From Malacoraja senta (Eukaryota), in NCBI GenBank assembly GCA_038087875.1, contig JAXLNO010002317.1, positions 2,046,001 to 2,110,000 of the forward strand: 64,000 nucleotides of DNA. Direction: 5' to 3'. The notes under the pieces were generated by a model that saw nothing but the letters and a program-made list of their open reading frames with translations, made no database searches and was not told where the DNA came from. Every line of letters starts with the position of its first letter. The stretch's first letter is position 1. A program made the translations under genes and the position numbers. This document shows positions 4,401-28,350 of the stretch, piece after piece.

Positions 4401-4562
4401 CTGCCACAATTACCAAAGAAATGGTGCGCTACAATCTCTTAGTTCTGGGCTTGCCTGAAAGTCCAGGGAAACCAAATTGGTCAGCGGGCAGTCCATTATC
4501 TACTCCGGACAGGAAGAGGAGTGAAGCATCGAAGAAGAAAATGAAGACACACCCTCCAGGAT

Positions 4563-4780
4563 ACCTGCCACAAACATCACCCGGCAAGCCCTGAAATGGA
4601 ACCCAAAGGAAAAAGGAAAAGAGGTCGCCCCAGGAACAGCTGGAGAAGAGGTGTCCAGACAGAAATGTCTGAGAGTGGGCTCAACTGGGGAGATCTTGAA
4701 AGAACTGCCAACAACCGAGTGAGGTGGAGGAGATTTGTCAATGGCCAATGCTCCCTCGAGGAGCAAAGGGCTTAAGAGGA
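4563..4780 (+). mobile_element. RTE-clade LINE 3' fragment
   Basis: Frameshifted PATNITRQALKWNP-KGKRKRGRPRNSWRR, typical of the RTE ORF C-terminus. Confidence 0.7.
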
Positions 4781-5014
4781 ACTAAACCCCTCAACCACCT
4801 CGACCAAACATCACCTCAGCTAAACATCACGTCAGCTAAATTTCACACCTTACTAAACGTTGCTTCGATTAAACCCCTCGCTTCAACTAAACCTCACGTC
4901 GACTAAACTTCACCTCGACTAAACCTCACTCCTCACTGCTAAACTACTAACACCTAAACCTCGCTTCAAATAAACGCCTCGCCTTGAACCTCAACTCAAC
5001 TAAACCTCACCTCA

Positions 5015-5263
5015 GTGAAACCTCTGTCTCAACACATTGAACCTCTGGTTCAACGCCAACATGCATCGCTGGGGGCTGCGTTCATCTGCAGCCTGCATGT
5101 GTGGAGCAGACCAGCAAACAGCGCAGCATGTCATTTTCGACTGCGCTGTCCTCCTTCCCCCTGGTGGAGGGGTAGACCTCACGGCCCTCGACAACAGCAC
5201 ATTGAACCGGCTACAGCCTGGAGGGCGTTACATAACCTCTGCTGCCTCAAACACAAGAAGAAG
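5015..5263 (+). mobile_element. Non-LTR retrotransposon 3' end with CCHC knuckle (Vingi/Ingi- or RTE-X-like)
   Basis: ORF 5037-5267 (RWGLRSSAACMCGADQQTAQHVIFDC). Tail ends in aagaagaag. Flanked by ctaaacctcacctca (5000-5014 and 5264-5278), a possible TSD, though inside repetitive DNA. Confidence 0.6.
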
Positions 5264-5450
5264 CTAAACCTCACCTCACTAAACCTCACCTCTACTAAAC
5301 CTCACCTCAACTAAACCTCACACCACGACTAAATCCTCACCTCGACTAAACTTTACCTCACTAAACCTCCCACCTCACAACTAAACTTTACCTCAGCTAG
5401 TCACCTGAACTAAACCTAAACCTTGCATCAGCTAAATGTCACAACTCTTA

Positions 5451-6740
5451 CCTCACCCCCACTACACCTCACCCTCACCCCCACACCTCACCCCCACTAC
5501 ACCTCACCCTCACCCCCACTACACCTCACCCCCACTACACCTCACCCCCGCTACACCTCACCCCCGCTACACCTCACCCCCGCTACACCTCACCCCCGCT
5601 ACACCTCACCCCCACCCCCACCTCACCCCCACCCCCACCCCCACCCCCACTACACCTCACCCCCGCTACACCTCACCCCCACCCCCACCCCCACTACACC
5701 TCACCCCCGCTACACCTCACCCCCACTACACCTCACCCCCACTACACCTCACCCCCACCCCCACTACACCTCACCCCCGCTACACCTCACCCCACCCCCA
5801 CTACACCTCACCCCCACTACACCTTACCCCCGCTACACCTCACCCCCGCTACACCTCACCCCCACCGCCACCCCCACTACACCTCACCCCCGCTACACCT
5901 CACCCCCACCCCCACTACACCTCACCCCCACCCCCACTACACCTCACCCCCACCCCCACTACACCTCACCCCCGCTACACCTCACCCCCACCCCCACTTC
6001 ACCTCACCCCCACTACACCTCACCCCCACCCCCACTACACCTCACCCCCACCCCCACTACACCTCACCCCCACCACACCTCACCCCCACCCCCACTACAC
6101 CTCACCCCCACCCCCACCCCCACTACACCTCACCCCCGCTACATCTCACCCCCACCCCCACTTCACCTCACCCCCACCCCCACTACACCTCACCCCCGCT
6201 ACACCTCACCCCCACCCCCACTTCACCTCACCCCCACCCCCACTACACCTCACCCCCACTACACCTCACCCCCACCCCCACCCCCACTACACCTCACCCC
6301 CACTACACCTCACCCCCACCCCCGCTACACCTCACCCCCACTACACCTCACCCCCACCCCCACCCCCACTACACCTCACCCCCACTACACCTCACCCCCA
6401 CCCCCACCCCCACTACACCTCACCCCCACTACACCTCACCCCCACCCCCACCCCCACTACACCTCACCCCCACTACACCTCACCCCCACTACACCTCACC
6501 CCCACTACACCTCACCCCCACCCCCACTACACCTCACCCCCACTACACCTCACCCCCACTACACCTCACCCCCACTACACCTCACCCCCACCCCCACTAC
6601 GCCTCACCCCCGCTACACCTCACCCCCGCTACACCCCACCCCCGCTACACCCCACCCCCGCTACACCCCACCCCCGCTACACCCCACCCCCGCTACACCC
6701 CACCCCCGCTACACCCCACCCCCGCTACACCTCACCCTCA
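5451..6740 (+). repeat. C-rich minisatellite, core (CCCC[A/G]CTACACCTCA)n
   Basis: Directly visible 15-mer tandem array with 5-6 nt insertions. Confidence 0.95.
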
Positions 6741-6829
6741 CGTTGACGTTGACTAAACTTCACCTCAACTACACTTCACCTGAACTAAACCTAAACGTCA
6801 CCTCAATAAACTCCACCTCACGACTAAAC

Positions 6830-7300
6830 TATTTATAGCCCCTCCCCCCCCCCCCCCCGGCCATTGGCGGCGCCTCACGTGAGCGGAGCGGATCCAACCA
6901 GAGCGCGGGTCACGTGGACAACTACAGCCCTCGCGGGGGAGGGCGAACGCGGAGAGCGGAGCAGGCGCACTGCCTGAGAGAGCCGGTGGGAAGGGGGAAG
7001 GGGGGCGCACGCTCGCTGACGTTGTTGTTGACGTCGAGTCCGAGGCCAGACCCCCCCGGCCTGGGCGGCCGCAGCCCCTCCCCACCGGCTCTCTCGGGCA
7101 GTGCGCCTGCGCCGCTCTCCGCGTTCGCCCCCCCCCCCCCGGCGAGGATGGCGCGAGACTCGCGACGGCTTTTGGCGCCTTTTTCCCGCCGAGGGCTGTA
7201 GTTGTCCACGTGACCCGCGCTCTGGTTGGATCCGCTCCGCTCACGTGAGGCGCCGCCAACGGCCGGGGAGGAGGGGGGAGGGGCTGTAAATAGTTTAGTC
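6830..7300. promoter_or_regulatory. CpG-rich palindrome core with four CACGTG E-boxes
   Basis: CACGTG at 6876, 6911, 7207 and 7242. CTATTTATAG near 6829-6838. GATGGCG (YY1-like) near 7147. High CpG density relative to the rest of the window. Function is inferred only. Confidence 0.4.
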
Positions 7301-7375
7301 GTGAGGTGGAGTTTATTGAGGTGACGTTTAGGTTTAGTTCAGGTGAAGTGTAGTTGAGGTGAAGTTTAGTCAACG

Positions 7376-8106
7376 TGAGGGTGAGGTGTAGCGGGGGTGG
7401 GGTGTAGCGGGGGTGGGGTGTAGCGGGGGTGAGGTGTAGCGGGGGTGAGGTGTAGCGGGGGTGAGGTGAGGTGTAGCGGGGGTGAGGTGAGGTGTAGCGG
7501 GCGTGAGGTGAGGTGTAGCGGGGGTGAGGTGAGGTGTAGAGGGGGTGAGGTGAGGTGTAGCGGGGGTGAGGTGAGGTGTAGCGGGGGTGAGGTGAGGTGT
7601 AGCGGGGGTGAGGTGAGGTGTAGCGGGGGTGAGGTGTAGTGGGGGTGTGGGTGAGGTGTAGTGGGGGTGAGGTGCAGTGGGGGTGAGGTGAGGTGTAGTG
7701 GGGGTGTGGGTGAGGTGTAGTGGGGGTGAGGTGTGGGGGTGAGGTGTAGTGGGGGTGAGGTGTAGTGGGGGTGAGGTGAGGTGTAGTGGGGGTGAGGTGA
7801 GGTGTAGTGGGGGTGAGGTGTAGTGGGGGTGGGGGTGAGGTGTAGTGGGGGTGGGGGTGAGGTGTAGTGGGGGTGAGCTGTAGCGGGGGTGAGGTGTAGC
7901 GGGGGTGAGGTGTAGCGGGGGTGAGGTGTAGCGGGGTGAGGTGTAGCGGGGGTGGGGGTGAGGTGTAGCGGGGGTGAGCTGTAGCGGGGGTGAGGTGTAG
8001 CGGGGGTGAGGTGTAGCGGGGGTGAGGTGTAGCGGGGGTGAGGTGTAGCGGGGGTGAGGTGTAGCGGGGGTGAGGTGTAGCGGGGGTGAGGTGTAGTGGG
8101 GGTGAG
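7376..8106 (+). repeat. G-rich minisatellite (TGAGGTGTAG[C/T]GGGG)n, reverse complement of the 5451-6740 array
   Basis: Directly visible. Confidence 0.95.
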
Positions 8107-8470
8107 GTTCGAGGCGAGGGGTTTAGTTGAAGTGAGGTTTAGGTGTGAGGAATAGTTTAGTAGTGAGGTGTGAGGTTTAGTCGAGGTGAAGTTTAGTCAA
8201 CGTGAGGTTTAGATGAAGCGAGGGGTTTAATCGAAGCAATGTTTAGTGAGGTGTGAAATGTAGTTGAGGTGAGGTTTAGCTGAGGTGAAGTTTGTTCGAG
8301 GTGATTGAGGGGTTTAGTTGAGGTGAGGTAAAGTTTAGTCGAGGTGAAGATTAGTCGAGGTGTGAGGTTTAGTTGAGGTGAAGTTTAGTCGAGGCGTGAG
8401 GTTTAGTAATGCGGCGATTAGTTGTGACGTTTAATTAAGTCAAAGTTAAGTCTAGGTGAGGTTTAGTTGA

Positions 8471-9021
8471 TGTGAGATTCAAAAATCACAAACGCTTTTA
8501 GAGACAAAGTCAGCAAAGAAGCTTTTTATTCAAATCATATTCTGCAGAATAGGTGCCTCTCCTCTGAAGGCCCCTAGAGGCACACCGAGGATCGGGATGA
8601 CTTCCATCTTTATACATTTCATGGGTATCATTGTCACACCCTCATCCCTCCCCATTGTGCTTCTTCCAATCATAACATAAAGCCCACATTCCCACGAGAA
8701 CGTCCTGGAACGTCCTGGAACGTCCACCTGACGTCAAAGACACCTCCCATATCATGCATCGCATGTGCATTTAAATGAGACATCTTGTCATAGTGGGTGT
8801 GTGTACATATTCATGTAAGTTCATTGCCCATGCGCACTGAGTGTTTCTTATGACCCTTACCCTAGTTCTATGCTGGGCTGTTGCTATCTTCTCTGTTCTC
8901 ATCCTTGAAAAAGTCACCATCTGTACTTGTCCTTCACTCCCCCTATCCTCCCTACTATACTCCCTACTATACAAAGGGTTCTTGTCTAAATCAACTTATA
9001 CCTATTAACCCCTTTCTCACA
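8471..9021 (-). mobile_element. Endogenous retrovirus 3' LTR (551 bp)
   Basis: 7-bp terminal inverted repeat TGTGAGA...TCTCACA. On the minus strand: purine-rich PPT-like tract at ~9022-9040, TATAAA at 8609-8614 and AATAAA at 8525-8530. Short tandem duplications in U3. Confidence 0.8.
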
Positions 9022-9115
9022 ATCCACACTTTTACTTTTGCTACTGCAATCTTTGATTTAGACTATCTGCCCCTTCTCTAATGCTAGCAGCAGAATCTTC
9101 GCCTCTATCTTCCTC

Positions 9116-9600
9116 TCATTCGATAGACAGGGAGGTGAGACCTGCTAGGGCTCTCGATACTGACCCATCAGGAGCAGTGTTGTTGGGGATGAAGGTGCAA
9201 CATTGTTCCCCAAACATTACACACACCCCTCCCTTCTCAGCCAGTAGCATGTCTAAGGCCATGCGATTTTGCCAGGCCATTAGGCTGGTATCTGTCAGTT
9301 GTTCCGCTAATCCTACAACCGCATCTCGAGTGTAATTTATAAAGCGTTGATTGTAGTATAGGTAGTTGATCCAGTCCACATTTTTATTAAGTGTGGACCA
9401 CCAGAAGAGTATGGACTCAAAGCCCGCAGCTATCTGGTTTCTGGCTTTGAATTCATCGGGTACCCCTCTTGGCACCCCTATCGCATCTATATATATGTGT
9501 GTGTCGAAGGGGCTGTCCTTCGGCCCTTTGTATTGTTGTTGCTAGCCGGGAATAGGTAATGATGACTCTGGCAGGTCGCATCCTTTGGTAGGATGGGATT
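9116..9600 (-). pseudogene. env: ERV env remnant (SU/TM junction and TM ectodomain), gamma/epsilon-type
   Basis: FDTHIYIDAIGVPRGVPDEFKARNQIAAGFES..., immunosuppressive domain QNRMALDMLLAEKGGVC, and CX6CC (CVMFGEQCC). Stop at 9116 comes before any membrane anchor. Confidence 0.9.
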
Positions 9601-9649
9601 CGTGAATAGCTGTAGTATACATGACATAGCCCCAGGTGTCCTATCCGTC

Positions 9650-10450
9650 AGTTTCGCCACCTCCAACGTGACCCCACCACTCGCCACATCTTCCCATCTC
9701 CCCCTATGTCTGCCTTCCGCAAAGACCGCTCCCTCCGTAACTCCCTTGTCAATTCTTCCCTTCCCTCCCATACCACCCCCTCCCCTGGTACTTTCCCTTG
9801 CAACCGCAAGAGATGCAACACTTGTCCCTTCACTTCCCCCCTCCACTCCATTCCAGGACCCAAGCAGTCGTTCCAGGTGCAACAGAGGTTCACCTGCATC
9901 TCCTCCAACCTCATCTATTGCATTCGCTGCTCTAGATGCCAGCTGATCTACATCGGTGAGACCAAGCGGAGGCTTGGCGATCGTTTCGCCGAACACCTCC
10001 GGTCGGTCCGCAATAACCAACCTGAACTCCCGGTGGCTCAGCACTTCAACTCCCCCTCCCATTCCGTATCTGACCTCTCTGTCCTGGGTCTCCTCCATGG
10101 CCACAGCGAGCAACACCGTAAATTGGAGGAAATGCACCTCATATTCCGCTTGGGCAGTCTACATCCTGGTGGCCTGAACGTTGAATTCTCCCAATTCTGC
10201 TAGCCCTGGCTGTCCCCTCCCCTTCATCAGCCATCTGGTTGTCTCCGCCCCTCCCCCAGCCCTCGGGCTCCTCCTCCTCCTTTTCCTTTTTTCCTTTCTT
10301 CTCCCCACCCCCTATCAGTCTGAAGAAGGGTTTCGGCCCGAAACGTTACCTATTTCCTTCGCTCCATAGATGCTGCTGCACCCGCTGAGTGCATTTTCTC
10401 CAGCATTTTTGTGTACCTTCGATTTTCCAGCATCTGCAGTTCCTTCTTTA
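9650..10450 (+). mobile_element. Penelope-like element, 5'-truncated, with open GIY-YIG ORF
   Basis: ORF 9706-10203 (CNRKRCNTCPF...YIGETKRRLGDRFAEH). pLTR with hammerhead motif at 10320-10348. Confidence 0.92.
10316..10352 (+). ncRNA. Minimal type I hammerhead ribozyme motif (PLE pLTR)
   Basis: CTGAAGA-A-GGGT(TTCG)GCCC-GAAAC-GTT: core CUGANGA and GAAA, stem II with a UUCG loop, palindromic ACGT stem III. Stem I is only ~2 bp. Confidence 0.65.
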
Positions 10451-14661: not shown

Positions 14662-15212
14662 GTGGCGCAGCGGTATAGTTGCTGCCTCACAGCACCAGAG
14701 ACCCGGGTTCGATCCCGACCACATGCCTGTACAGAGCTTGCATGTTCTCCCCGTGACCCGAGTGGGTTTTCTCCGAGATCTTCGGTTTCCTCCCACACTC
14801 CAAAGATGTACGGGATTGTAGGATAATAGGCTTGCTGTAAATGTAAAATGATCACGAGTGTGTGTCTGATGGTGTTAGTGTGCGGGGATCGCAGGTTGGC
14901 GTGGACTCAGTGGGCCGAAGGGCCTGTTTTCGCCCTGTATCTCTAAACTAAACATAGAACTAGTGTGTGAACAGGTGATCGCTGGTCGGCAGGGACTCGG
15001 TGGGCTGAAGGACCTGTTTCCGCGCTGTATCTCTAAACTAAACTAGTGTGTGAACGGGCGATCGCTGGTCGGCGTGGACTCGGAGGGCCGATGGACCTGT
15101 TTCCGCGCTGTATCTCTAAACTAAACATAGAACCAGTGTGTGAACGGGTGATCGATGGTCGGAGCGGACTCGGTGGGCCGAAGGACCTGTTTCCGCGCTG
15201 TATCTCTAAACT
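14662..15212 (+). mobile_element. tRNA-derived V-SINE (HE1-like) with four tandem 3' tail units
   Basis: A box TGGCGCAGCGG, B box GGTTCGATCC, V-domain core ttctccccgtgacc...ggtttcctcccacactccaaag, and the tail gggccgaagggcctgtttcc...tgtatctctaaactaaac repeated four times. Confidence 0.85.
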
Positions 15213-15541
15213 TAACGAGGTCTAAAATGTGTGGGGATTGTTTTTTACCCAGAGAGTGGTGGTGCCTAGGGGTGATGGTGGAGGCCGTGATGATAGTGGT
15301 GTTTTGGTGGCCTTTAGATAGGCACATGGACATGCACGGAATACAGAGTTTCATATTATGTGCAGGCAAAGGAGATTAATTTGGCATCATGTTCGGCACG
15401 GACAATGTGGGCCGAAGGGCCTGTTCCTGTGCTGTGCTATTCTCTGTTCTAGGTTTTCACTCTCTGCTAATTCATTAAAAAACTTTGCGGAGTTAGTTGG
15501 GCAAACTTGCCTTGCACAAATCCAGACATTCTTGAATCAGT

Positions 15542-18864: not shown

Positions 18865-19605
18865 AGGTTTCCTCCCACATTCCAAAGACATTCAGGTTTG
18901 TAGGTGTTAAAGAAGGAACTGCAGATGCTGGAAAATCGAAGGTACACAAAAATGGTGGAGAAACTCAGCGGGTGCAGCAGCATCTATGGAGCGAAGGAAA
19001 TAGGTAACGTTTCGGGCCGAAACCCTGAAGAAGGGTTTCGGCCCGAAACGTTACCTATTTCCTTCGCTCCATAGATGCTGCTGCACCCGCTGAGTATCTC
19101 CAGCATTTTTGTGTACCTCAGGTTTGTAGGTGAATTGGCTTGTGAAAATTATTAATTGTCCCTGGTGTGTGTAGGATAGTGCTAGTGTGCGGGGATCGCT
19201 GGTTGGCACGGATTCGGTGGGCCGAAGGACCTGTTTCCGCACTGTATCTCTAAACTAAACACAGAACTAGTGTGTGAATGGTTGATCGATGGTCAGCATG
19301 GACTAAGTGGGCCGAAGAACCTGTTTCCGCGCTGTATCTCTAAACTAAACACAGAACTAGTGTGTGAATGGGTGATCGCTGGTCAGCATGGACTAGGTGG
19401 GCCTGTTTCCACGCTGTATATCTAGACTAAACATAGAACTAGTGTGTGAACGGCTGATCGATGGTCGACGCGGACGAAGGGCCTGTTTCTACGCTGTATC
19501 TCGGAAACAAAACATAGAACTAGTGTGTGGACGGGTGATCGATGGCCTGCATGGACTCGGTGGGCCGAGGGGGCCTGTTTCCATGCTGTATCTCTAAACT
19601 AAACT
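18865..19605 (+). mobile_element. V-SINE with five tandem tail units, interrupted by a palindromic PLE insertion (18907-19118)
   Basis: V-domain and tail sequence recognisable. Insertion TSD caggtttgtaggtg at 18893-18906 and 19119-19132. Confidence 0.85.
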
Positions 19606-26054: not shown

Positions 26055-26620
26055 CATGATGGCGCAGCGATAGAGTTGCTGCCTCACAGAGCCAGAGACC
26101 CGGGTTTGATCCTGACTACTGGTGCTTGTCTGTATGGAGTTTGTACATTCTCTCCGTGACCGGCGTGGGCTTTCTCCAGGATCTCCAGTTGCCACCCACA
26201 CTCCAGGTTTGTAGGTTAATTGGCTTGGTGTCATTATAAATCGTCCCAAGCGTGTGTTGGGTAGCGTTAGTGTGCGGGGTGATTGATAGTCAGCGTTGGC
26301 TCGGTGGGCTGAAGGGCCTGTTTCCACGCTGTATCGCCAAACTAAATACAGAACTAGTGTGTGAATGGGTGAATGATAGTCAATGCGGACTCGGTGGGCC
26401 AAAGGGCCTGTTTCCACGCTGTATCGCCAAACTAAACATAGAACTAGTGTGTGAACGGGTGATCGTTGGTCAGCATGGACTCAGTGAGCCTGTTTCCACG
26501 CTGTATCTCTAAACTAAACGTAGATCGAATGTGTGATTGGGTGATCGATGGTCAGCACGGACCCGGTGGGCCGAAGGGCCTATTTTCACACTATCTCTTA
26601 ACTGAACTGAACTAAACTAA
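26055..26620 (+). mobile_element. V-SINE with four tandem tail units
   Basis: tggcgcagcgatag A box, gggtttgatcc B box, repeated gggccgaagggcctgtttccacgctgtatc tails. Confidence 0.85.
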
Positions 26621-27874: not shown

Positions 27875-28350
27875 ATTTAGCTTAGTTTTACAGTTTAGAG
27901 ATACAGTGCGGAAACGGGCTCTTCGGCCCATCGAGTCCGCTCCGACAATCGATCACCCTTTCACACACTACTTCCATGTTTAGTTTAGAGACACAGCATG
28001 GCAACAGGCCCATCATCCCACCGAGTCCATGCCGACTTGCAATCACCCGTTCACAAACTAGTTCTGTGTTTAGTTTAGTGACACAGCGTGGAAACAGGCC
28101 CTTCGGCCCACACTGACCAGTGACCAACGCTGTCCTACACACACTTCGGACAAATGAAAACGTTTTTACCGAAGTCTAATTAACCTATAAACCCGTACGT
28201 CTTTGGAACGTGGAAGGAACCGGAGATCCCGGAGAAAATCCACGCAGATCACAGGGAGAACGTACAAACTCAGTACAGACAGCACCTGTAGTCAGGATCG
28301 AAGTCGGGTCTCTGGCGCTGTGAGGCAGCAACTCTACCGCTGGGCCACTG
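27875..28350 (-). mobile_element. V-SINE with tandem tail units
   Basis: Reverse-complement head at ~28300-28350 and three tail units at 27875-28130. Confidence 0.8.

Follow-up and report, generated by a model that had tools for sequence, protein, structure and literature searches.

The window analysed here, a stretch of 64,000 nucleotides from the skate Malacoraja senta (assembly GCA_038087875.1, contig JAXLNO010002317.1, positions 2,046,001 to 2,110,000 of the forward strand), holds a palindrome of ~3.7 kb at 4781..8470. A sequence-only reading had placed the palindrome there, and sequence comparison confirms it. In the inner arms, 183 of 187 paired bases are identical between 6746-6933 and 7177-7376, and 58 of 62 between 6935-6996 and ~7075-7136; the fold of 6746-7376 reaches -364.6 kcal/mol as compared with -126.9 for shuffled sequences (z = -48). 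The outer arms (4780-5010 and 8090-8319) are identical in 205 of 230 columns, which agrees with the scattered substitutions reported for this domain. Between the two domains lie minisatellite arrays of 1292 bp on the left and 730 bp on the right, very near to the ~1290 and ~730 bp estimated earlier; the arrays are built on a 16-mer interrupted by 6-bp insertions, and not on the 15-mer that had been proposed. GC content of the core is 0.73, and its CpG o/e is 0.91 versus 0.56 across the window.

The two arms are not equal. A LINE insert had been noticed in the left arm only, and its zf-RVT-like tail is indeed found there (E 8.5e-5, below the Pfam cut-off) and also in the duplicates L030, L031, and L044. 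The right arm has an additional block near 7141-7192, of ~52 bp and not of ~60 bp as first given. Since three other loci (L041, L053, and L059) have this block on both sides, the difference is to be ascribed to a deletion from the left arm. As for the flanks, the label ERV on the right is borne out by an env fragment at 9116-9277 (Pfam TLV_coat, E 1.3e-6), while the LINE on the left, at 4545..4780, gave no relevant Pfam match and is presumably of RTE type, as judged from its translation. The earlier statement that the palindrome has no coding capacity holds for PRDM9 exons, none of which was detected by tblastn in the window or in the 10 kb that follow it. It does not hold in the strict sense, as a low-complexity ORF of 436 codons runs over the left array, on the C/A-rich strand and antisense to the predicted transcript; we treat this ORF as a by-product. 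Rfam returned sub-threshold hairpin matches only, and a promoter scan with bacterial models, which are irrelevant to this DNA, was empty. Positions of all the features are collected in Table 1, where the factor names (NRF1, E2F, MYB, CCAAT, E-box, and CRE) are those we presume from the motifs.

Table 1. Features of the palindrome and of its flanks, with positions in the window.
Feature	Position	Strand	Basis or remark
LINE 3' end (presumably RTE-like) cutting off the left arm; flank, outside the unit	4545..4780	+	translation; junction against the intact arm of L038
Left outer domain, made of degenerate 16-mer repeats; distal part of the 5' leader predicted for the PRDM9 copy that points left	4781..5010	-	
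LINE 3' fragment, left arm only	~5022..5260	+	zf-RVT-like translation of 5022-5255
Extra leader-type degenerate repeats, left only	5261..5449	-	
Left 16-mer minisatellite, an expanded leader repeat	5450..6741	-	
Left predicted promoter arm	6746..7010	-	motif positions; homology to promoters of open PRDM9-like genes; E2F-like block deleted
Motifs of the left arm	TATA-like 6829-6840; CCAAT/MYB-like 6860-6868; E-boxes 6876, 6911; NRF1-like module ~6935-7010		
Unique spacer with two TGACGT (CRE-like) sites	7011..7075	.	also in one-armed PRDM9 promoters
Right predicted promoter arm with proximal leader	7076..7378	+	
Motifs of the right arm	NRF1-like 7103; E2F-like block 7141-7192; E-boxes 7207, 7242; MYB-like 7255; mutated TATA 7282-7293		
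Right 16-mer minisatellite	7379..8108	+	
Right outer domain (distal leader)	8109..8470	+	junction; L031 match
ERV LTR and env fragment cutting off the right arm; flank	8471..9400	-	junction; Pfam

What kind of sequence is repeated in the two arms? The core is not single-copy: a genome search gave at least 125 matches (best 40 of 320 candidates scored). Two-armed arrays are present in 10 of these 40 core loci, eight of them in scaffold C2317 and one each in C627 and C4307, and most of the other loci are one-armed. Read outward, a complete arm has NRF1-like and E2F-like motifs, two E-boxes, a MYB/CCAAT-like motif and a TATA box, and then the repeats. In intact sister arms, the sequence past the repeats leads to an exon with the ATG and then to an aKRAB exon of 41 codons, whose 41-aa product had homologs, in that search, in two proteins only, both PRDM7-like, from Leucoraja and Amblyraja. 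One skate PRDM7-like protein (P0002) has a zinc knuckle and a PR/SET domain, finds its best structure match in PRDM9 (E 4e-73), and aligns with mouse PRDM9 at 44% over a region spanning the KRAB- and SSXRD-like parts; the aKRAB exon taken by itself has no match in Pfam or PDB. In mammals, PRDM9 determines where meiotic crossovers occur. The core also lies directly upstream of the ATG of a PRDM9-like gene on C5430. Because intact arms and the C5430 core both lead into PRDM9 exons, each arm can be regarded as the start of a PRDM9-like gene, made up of a predicted promoter, called from motifs and position, and of the 5' leader.

The arms in the window are likewise homologous to the sequence that immediately precedes the PRDM9 ATG. 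The left arm halts at the LINE and the right arm at the ERV. The left outer domain matches the arm of L038 at 205 of 234 positions, and the L038 arm runs on to the ATG and aKRAB exons. The right outer domain is 98.9% identical over 262 bp to the near-identical duplicate L031, which reaches the ATG exon; L031 also contains the left arm of the window together with its flank, duplicated in inverted orientation at 98.5-99%. When 17 arms were mapped on an intact gene, they ended at different points, and none of the 17 reached exon 3. Thus, the window palindrome is very probably a head-to-head pair of PRDM9-like 5' fragments, likely made by fold-back, whose coding exons were lost after the cuts by the LINE and the ERV. 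The window copy would then be a pseudogene remnant, although its core may still be active rather than dead, because its CpG o/e stays far above that of the window.

How can a gene start come to face its own copy? Some sister cores lie at the centre of much longer palindromes, of at least 29 kb with arms at 98.8% in L037 and of ~71 kb at 91-95% in L033, while three of four cores on C2317 that were extended to ~30 kb (L035, L036, and L039) are not centres of long palindromes. Promoter variants point in the same direction. Among 41 loci examined, a part of them scorable on one side only, one variant occupies both arms in all the eight two-armed copies with a score for each arm, and the other variant is present on the two sides of all 14 full-gene promoters and of all three L041-type copies for which both sides were scored. 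An inserted hairpin, of Penelope type and with a GIY-YIG relative in the window, is found in both arms at five loci and in one arm at six loci among L030-L040, and at none of 31 other loci. Because sister cores centre palindromes of 29 kb or more and both arms share the subfamily variants, recurrent fold-back duplication or arm-to-arm conversion may be inferred. In a divergent subfamily, too, two TATA boxes point outward and an older inverted copy (~80%) of its own intron 1 is present, so that the head-to-head layout is old and recurrent; additional head-to-head pairs are found at C3570, C3526, C4403, and C2317:3.00 Mb. We suppose that fold-back duplication, of ODIRA or breakage-fusion type, is primed by the short inverted repeat of the promoter, or that the arms convert each other, and that one-sided deletions and insertions then break the symmetry of the arms. 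Such a cycle of duplication and decay would drive birth and death of PRDM9 copies. A fold-back palindrome at a CpG-island locus was one of the two origins suggested by the sequence-only reading, and it gains support here, the locus being the 5' end of PRDM9-like genes. The spacer is reversed in L033 and L038; a flip-flop of the spacer is not claimed, as the marker deletions have different breakpoints.

A piece of the same promoter travels in another vehicle. Search with a promoter motif gave 69 places, 13 of them on large chromosomes, and those on large chromosomes belong to a separate non-autonomous element of ~1.4-3.3 kb with imperfect 15-bp TIRs and 8-bp TSDs. TSDs with two mismatches or fewer, for which chance is 0.5% per pair, flank eight of eight both-ended copies from 19 loci and 14 of 15 from 18 more loci; in the fifteenth copy, the TSD becomes visible after a shortened end. 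We take this carrier to be hAT-like by its TIRs and type of TSD, in comparison with the hallmarks of the hAT superfamily; P-type elements also have 8-bp TSDs. In its cargo, a stub of the leader in inverted orientation is followed by the spacer, a single promoter arm, and leader sequence as far as the ATG; LINE debris, presumably CR1, comes after it. Exact-pattern searches found the carrier at 31 and 28 places. Its ends have no match at the palindrome or in the 128 loci L030-L157, and the match in the window is 38 kb off. On C5446, there is a two-armed relative of 13.3 kb, which contains a complete two-TATA core and has transposon right ends on both sides but no TSD. In a leader tree (midpoint root, bootstrap unsettled), the carrier is placed with the younger subfamilies and the divergent PRDM9 subfamily stands apart from it. 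The earlier hunch of mobility was partly right for relatives, a related promoter piece being carried by the hAT-like element, and not for the window copy itself.

Could the window palindrome nevertheless be a foldback DNA transposon with concealed true ends, the undescribed element that had been proposed at first? Its arms are modular with tandem sub-repeats, as in such elements, and the ten two-armed core loci and the C5446 relative with a transposon end on each side are in its favor. However, the arms enter PRDM9 exon 1, the aKRAB exon, and intron 2 and end at differing points with no common termini, carrier ends are missing from the palindrome and from L030-L157, the two-armed copies are concentrated in a single ampliconic scaffold and were copied together with their flanks, and C5446 itself has no TSD. 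It had been said that no TSD can be read at the palindrome, and there is indeed no direct repeat of 4 bp or longer at its ends, though this point is weak by itself since those ends are secondary junctions. A foldback element is very improbable on this balance, and that proposal is abandoned here. Another possibility is that transfer went in the reverse direction, an ancestral skate PRDM9 having received its palindromic promoter and its leader from a hAT-like or foldback element. In its favor, the sequence that the carrier has in common with PRDM9 loci reaches no further than the PRDM9 ATG, carrier copies are numerous and widely scattered, and C5446 holds its complete core between transposon ends. 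But the leader in the carrier is followed by LINE debris and not by the start of a transposase, no remnant of a transposon end is seen in the 128 loci, and the divergent PRDM9 subfamily, apart from the carrier, already has the two-TATA promoter and leader, which is a weak argument in an unrooted tree. We consider this direction quite unlikely; capture of a promoter piece from a PRDM9 locus by the carrier would be the simpler reading.

The two-armed copies without coding exons might also be active bidirectional promoters for ncRNA or dsRNA that regulates the PRDM9 family, an idea compatible with their origin as head-to-head gene starts. It would fit with the maintained CpG island, with the perfect hairpin inserted in the arms in both directions, and with the clustering of about ten such loci in one scaffold. 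Against it, the right TATA box is mutated in the window, the subfamily of the window lacks a segment of ~35 bp that follows the TATA box in open genes, and the arms are full of independent insertions and deletions, so such a role is rather unlikely. An assembly artefact from fold-back chimeric long reads is scarcely credible. Gaps and many inverted duplications at 99% in this region may raise the suspicion, but the arms differ in substitutions, a deletion, array length, and insertions, the same layout is found on other contigs, and independent short-read contigs from other public runs change strand across the core (X7, with the joint 7080/7142, and X10, record 2), which excludes a long-read artefact and is in accordance with the opinion first derived from divergence of the arms.

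Read as a head-to-head pair of PRDM9-like gene starts, the palindrome leads to a family of unusual size. By counting of its exons, PRDM9 has apparently multiplied in this skate to more than 100 whole and partial copies. The aKRAB exon has at least 150 matches (best 150 of 168 candidates scored), the top 51 being at 90-100%; the PR/SET exon also has at least 150 (best 150 of 213 candidates scored), 133 of them at 83% or more, and the finger exon has at least 76 (best 150 of 178 candidates scored), and these copy counts are those of an assembly of thousands of small contigs. Some copies may be alleles because ten genes differ by just 0.8-2.5%. Of 14 genes that were checked, eight keep an open frame from the ATG across PR/SET, together with every splice site and the motifs of the three catalytic tyrosines; of the remaining six, one has an open frame but two altered splice sites, two are covered incompletely by the sequence examined, and three are broken. 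Among the 19 best-matching finger exons, nine keep an open frame as far as the normal end, with seven different contact patterns between them. Given that eight genes are open from aKRAB to PR/SET and that the open finger arrays are of seven kinds, at least four loci would be present even if half of them were alleles.

A finger exon is linked to its gene in three cases, which are open on C5430, frameshifted on C2386, and at the contig end on C1538; for most other genes, the contig ends before the finger exon. The C5430 gene has an open frame of 572 aa with the order aKRAB, SSXRD-like, PR/SET, and ZF and with AG/GT sites, and its exon 3 is missing in frame. In intact relatives, the aKRAB part is recognized by alignment with the KRAB region of mouse PRDM9, Pfam KRAB giving no match; an SSXRD motif aligned to that of mouse PRDM9 is present, while PF09514 gives no match in a search which was silent on controls too. 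PR/SET with its three catalytic tyrosines has PRDM9 as the best PDB match, and the gene-linked last exon encodes a tandem C2H2 array. The share of contact-residue diversity is 0.25-0.44 in nine arrays, as compared with 0.33-1.0 for complete orthologs in the available part of Baker et al., 2017 (PMC5519329). Values at or below the low end of complete orthologs make a weaker case for classical hotspot function. Contigs of four runs presumed to be RNA (one is probably DNA) show no exon-to-exon joint on L059 and are uninformative on expression. A SET-less aKRAB-ZF subfamily was considered as a working analogue of KRAB-ZFPs and rejected, as its aKRAB exon is frameshifted or stopped in 10 of 10 loci (L129-L138); L128, of the same subfamily, has no aKRAB match in its stretch. 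It is conceivable, and we propose it tentatively as somewhat less than an even chance, that many PRDM9 genes function at once in the skate, each with its own DNA specificity set by its zinc-finger array, and that they were pumped up by fold-back at a two-way promoter which a DNA transposon captured and scattered.

How does this compare with families described so far? To the extent that the available parts of the papers tell, salmonids have 6-14 PRDM9 paralogs (PMC11703093), catfish show amplification of PRDM9-alpha (PMC11600626), cnidarians have 2-4 full-length paralogs, and the vertebrates described so far keep one fully hotspot-competent paralog (bioRxiv 10.64898/2026.09.07.749791, a 2026 preprint). 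According to a table in Baker et al., 2017 (PMC5519329), cattle, sheep, degu, and salmon have two or three complete copies, and in the portion available the same paper reports recent PRDM9 duplications and a weak SSXRD in cartilaginous fish without mention of skates. The available part of Cavassim et al., 2022 (PMC8892340) has no match to skate. We found no account of PRDM9 expansion in skates in the literature, where supplements or subscription papers may hold counts, and several skate PRDM7/9-like proteins are already annotated in NCBI. The skate genes resemble PRDM9 and its paralogs in having aKRAB, SSXRD-like, zinc knuckle, PR/SET with three tyrosines, and tandem C2H2 parts, and resemble PRDM9 paralog families in birth-and-death with many truncated copies. 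They differ from them in a copy number about tenfold higher (at least 133 PR/SET-exon matches at 83% or more), in several open copies with different finger arrays, and in a palindromic promoter, and the window copy differs also in its lack of any coding exon.

Palindromic segmental duplications are well known as the palindromes of mammalian sex chromosomes. ODIRA-type amplification with arm deletion occurs in yeast (PMC4689423, as far as its available part goes). The skate palindromes share with both a short spacer, high identity of arms, one-sided deletions, and homogenisation of arms, whereas their centre is a gene promoter reused many times in one family, and their mechanism is deduced from sequence. 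Foldback elements have modular TIRs and TSDs (PMC4079207, in the part available); the window arms are like those of FB, Galileo, and Tetris in being long, inverted, and built of an outer domain, tandem repeats, and an inner domain, with a middle segment between the two arms, but the window copy has no defined termini or TSD and its arms are derived from a gene. Pack-type non-autonomous transposons (PMC8903248) and hAT elements find their counterpart in the dispersed carrier with short TIRs, 8-bp TSDs, and captured host DNA, although the carrier is a sibling of the window feature and not the feature itself, and its cargo is a promoter and leader, not coding DNA.

The interest of this locus lies in the family that the window copy reveals and not in a new foldback transposon. 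The copy is probably a dead gene start, and yet it exposes an amplification of PRDM9 far beyond the published cases we found, in salmonids and cnidarians. The palindromic promoter offers a concrete and plausible structural cause of this amplification, and a transposon that has captured it could distribute a predicted germline promoter over the whole genome. If many PRDM9s do work at once, the reported rule that a vertebrate genome has one hotspot-competent PRDM9 would be broken, and the skate would provide a natural test of models of PRDM9 dosage and of the Red Queen. If they are expressed in meiosis, skates would make it possible to test how hotspots are shared among PRDM9s and whether duplication serves as an escape from hotspot erosion.

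A non-autonomous transposon with 8-bp target-site duplications (TSDs), which we take to be hAT-like from the type of its TIRs and TSDs, is seen at the genome loci L158-L172 and L179-L196 (C1, C2, C3, C10, C13, C18, C22 and other contigs or scaffolds), and two pattern searches gave 31 and 28 exact-pattern places for it. Its cargo is a predicted PRDM9 promoter arm with its leader, ending at the ATG. A two-armed relative on C5446 bears transposon right ends at both of its extremities, no TSD was found at this palindrome, and it comes nearest to being a genuine foldback element.

Scaffold C2317, to which the window belongs, looks ampliconic, and its inverted duplication has arms of at least 26 kb, 98.5-99.8% identical, that extend past the window end. 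In the C2317 subfamily (L030-L040), the leader contains an inserted perfect hairpin of Penelope type, for which Rfam gave sub-threshold miRNA-like matches only. The tandem ~90-bp unit of the window is presumably SINE/LINE-tail-like.

Coordinates of features in the window and elsewhere in the genome
Feature	Location	Remark
Large inverted duplication	window 21600-64000, continuing past its end	centred at about 47800
Penelope-like element fragments	window 9640-10450, 208-964	GIY-YIG domain
~90-bp unit, tandem copies	window 14883-15216, 19206-19604, 26277-26589, 27892-28111	
Two-armed promoter palindrome, 13.3 kb	G000:C5446:118244-131575	loci L173, L177, L178
Contigs starting at break in last intron	C1342, C1953, C2026, C104, C3345, C3303	
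Contigs ending at break in last intron	C1581, C4181, C2900, C87	

Loci L098-L107 form a second, divergent PRDM9-like subfamily, whose compact promoter is predicted to have two TATA boxes and several contigs of which also carry PR/SET exons (57-70% identity). At about 25 places (L128-L138 and similar rows of the aKRAB- and finger-exon searches) there is a SET-less subfamily, in which PR/SET is deleted and the finger exon follows the aKRAB exon by ~0.5 kb; this layout resembles that of KRAB-ZNF genes, although the copies read are broken. The annotation probably under-represents full-length PRDM9 copies, since the last intron, which leads to the finger exon, is a repeated site of assembly breaks.
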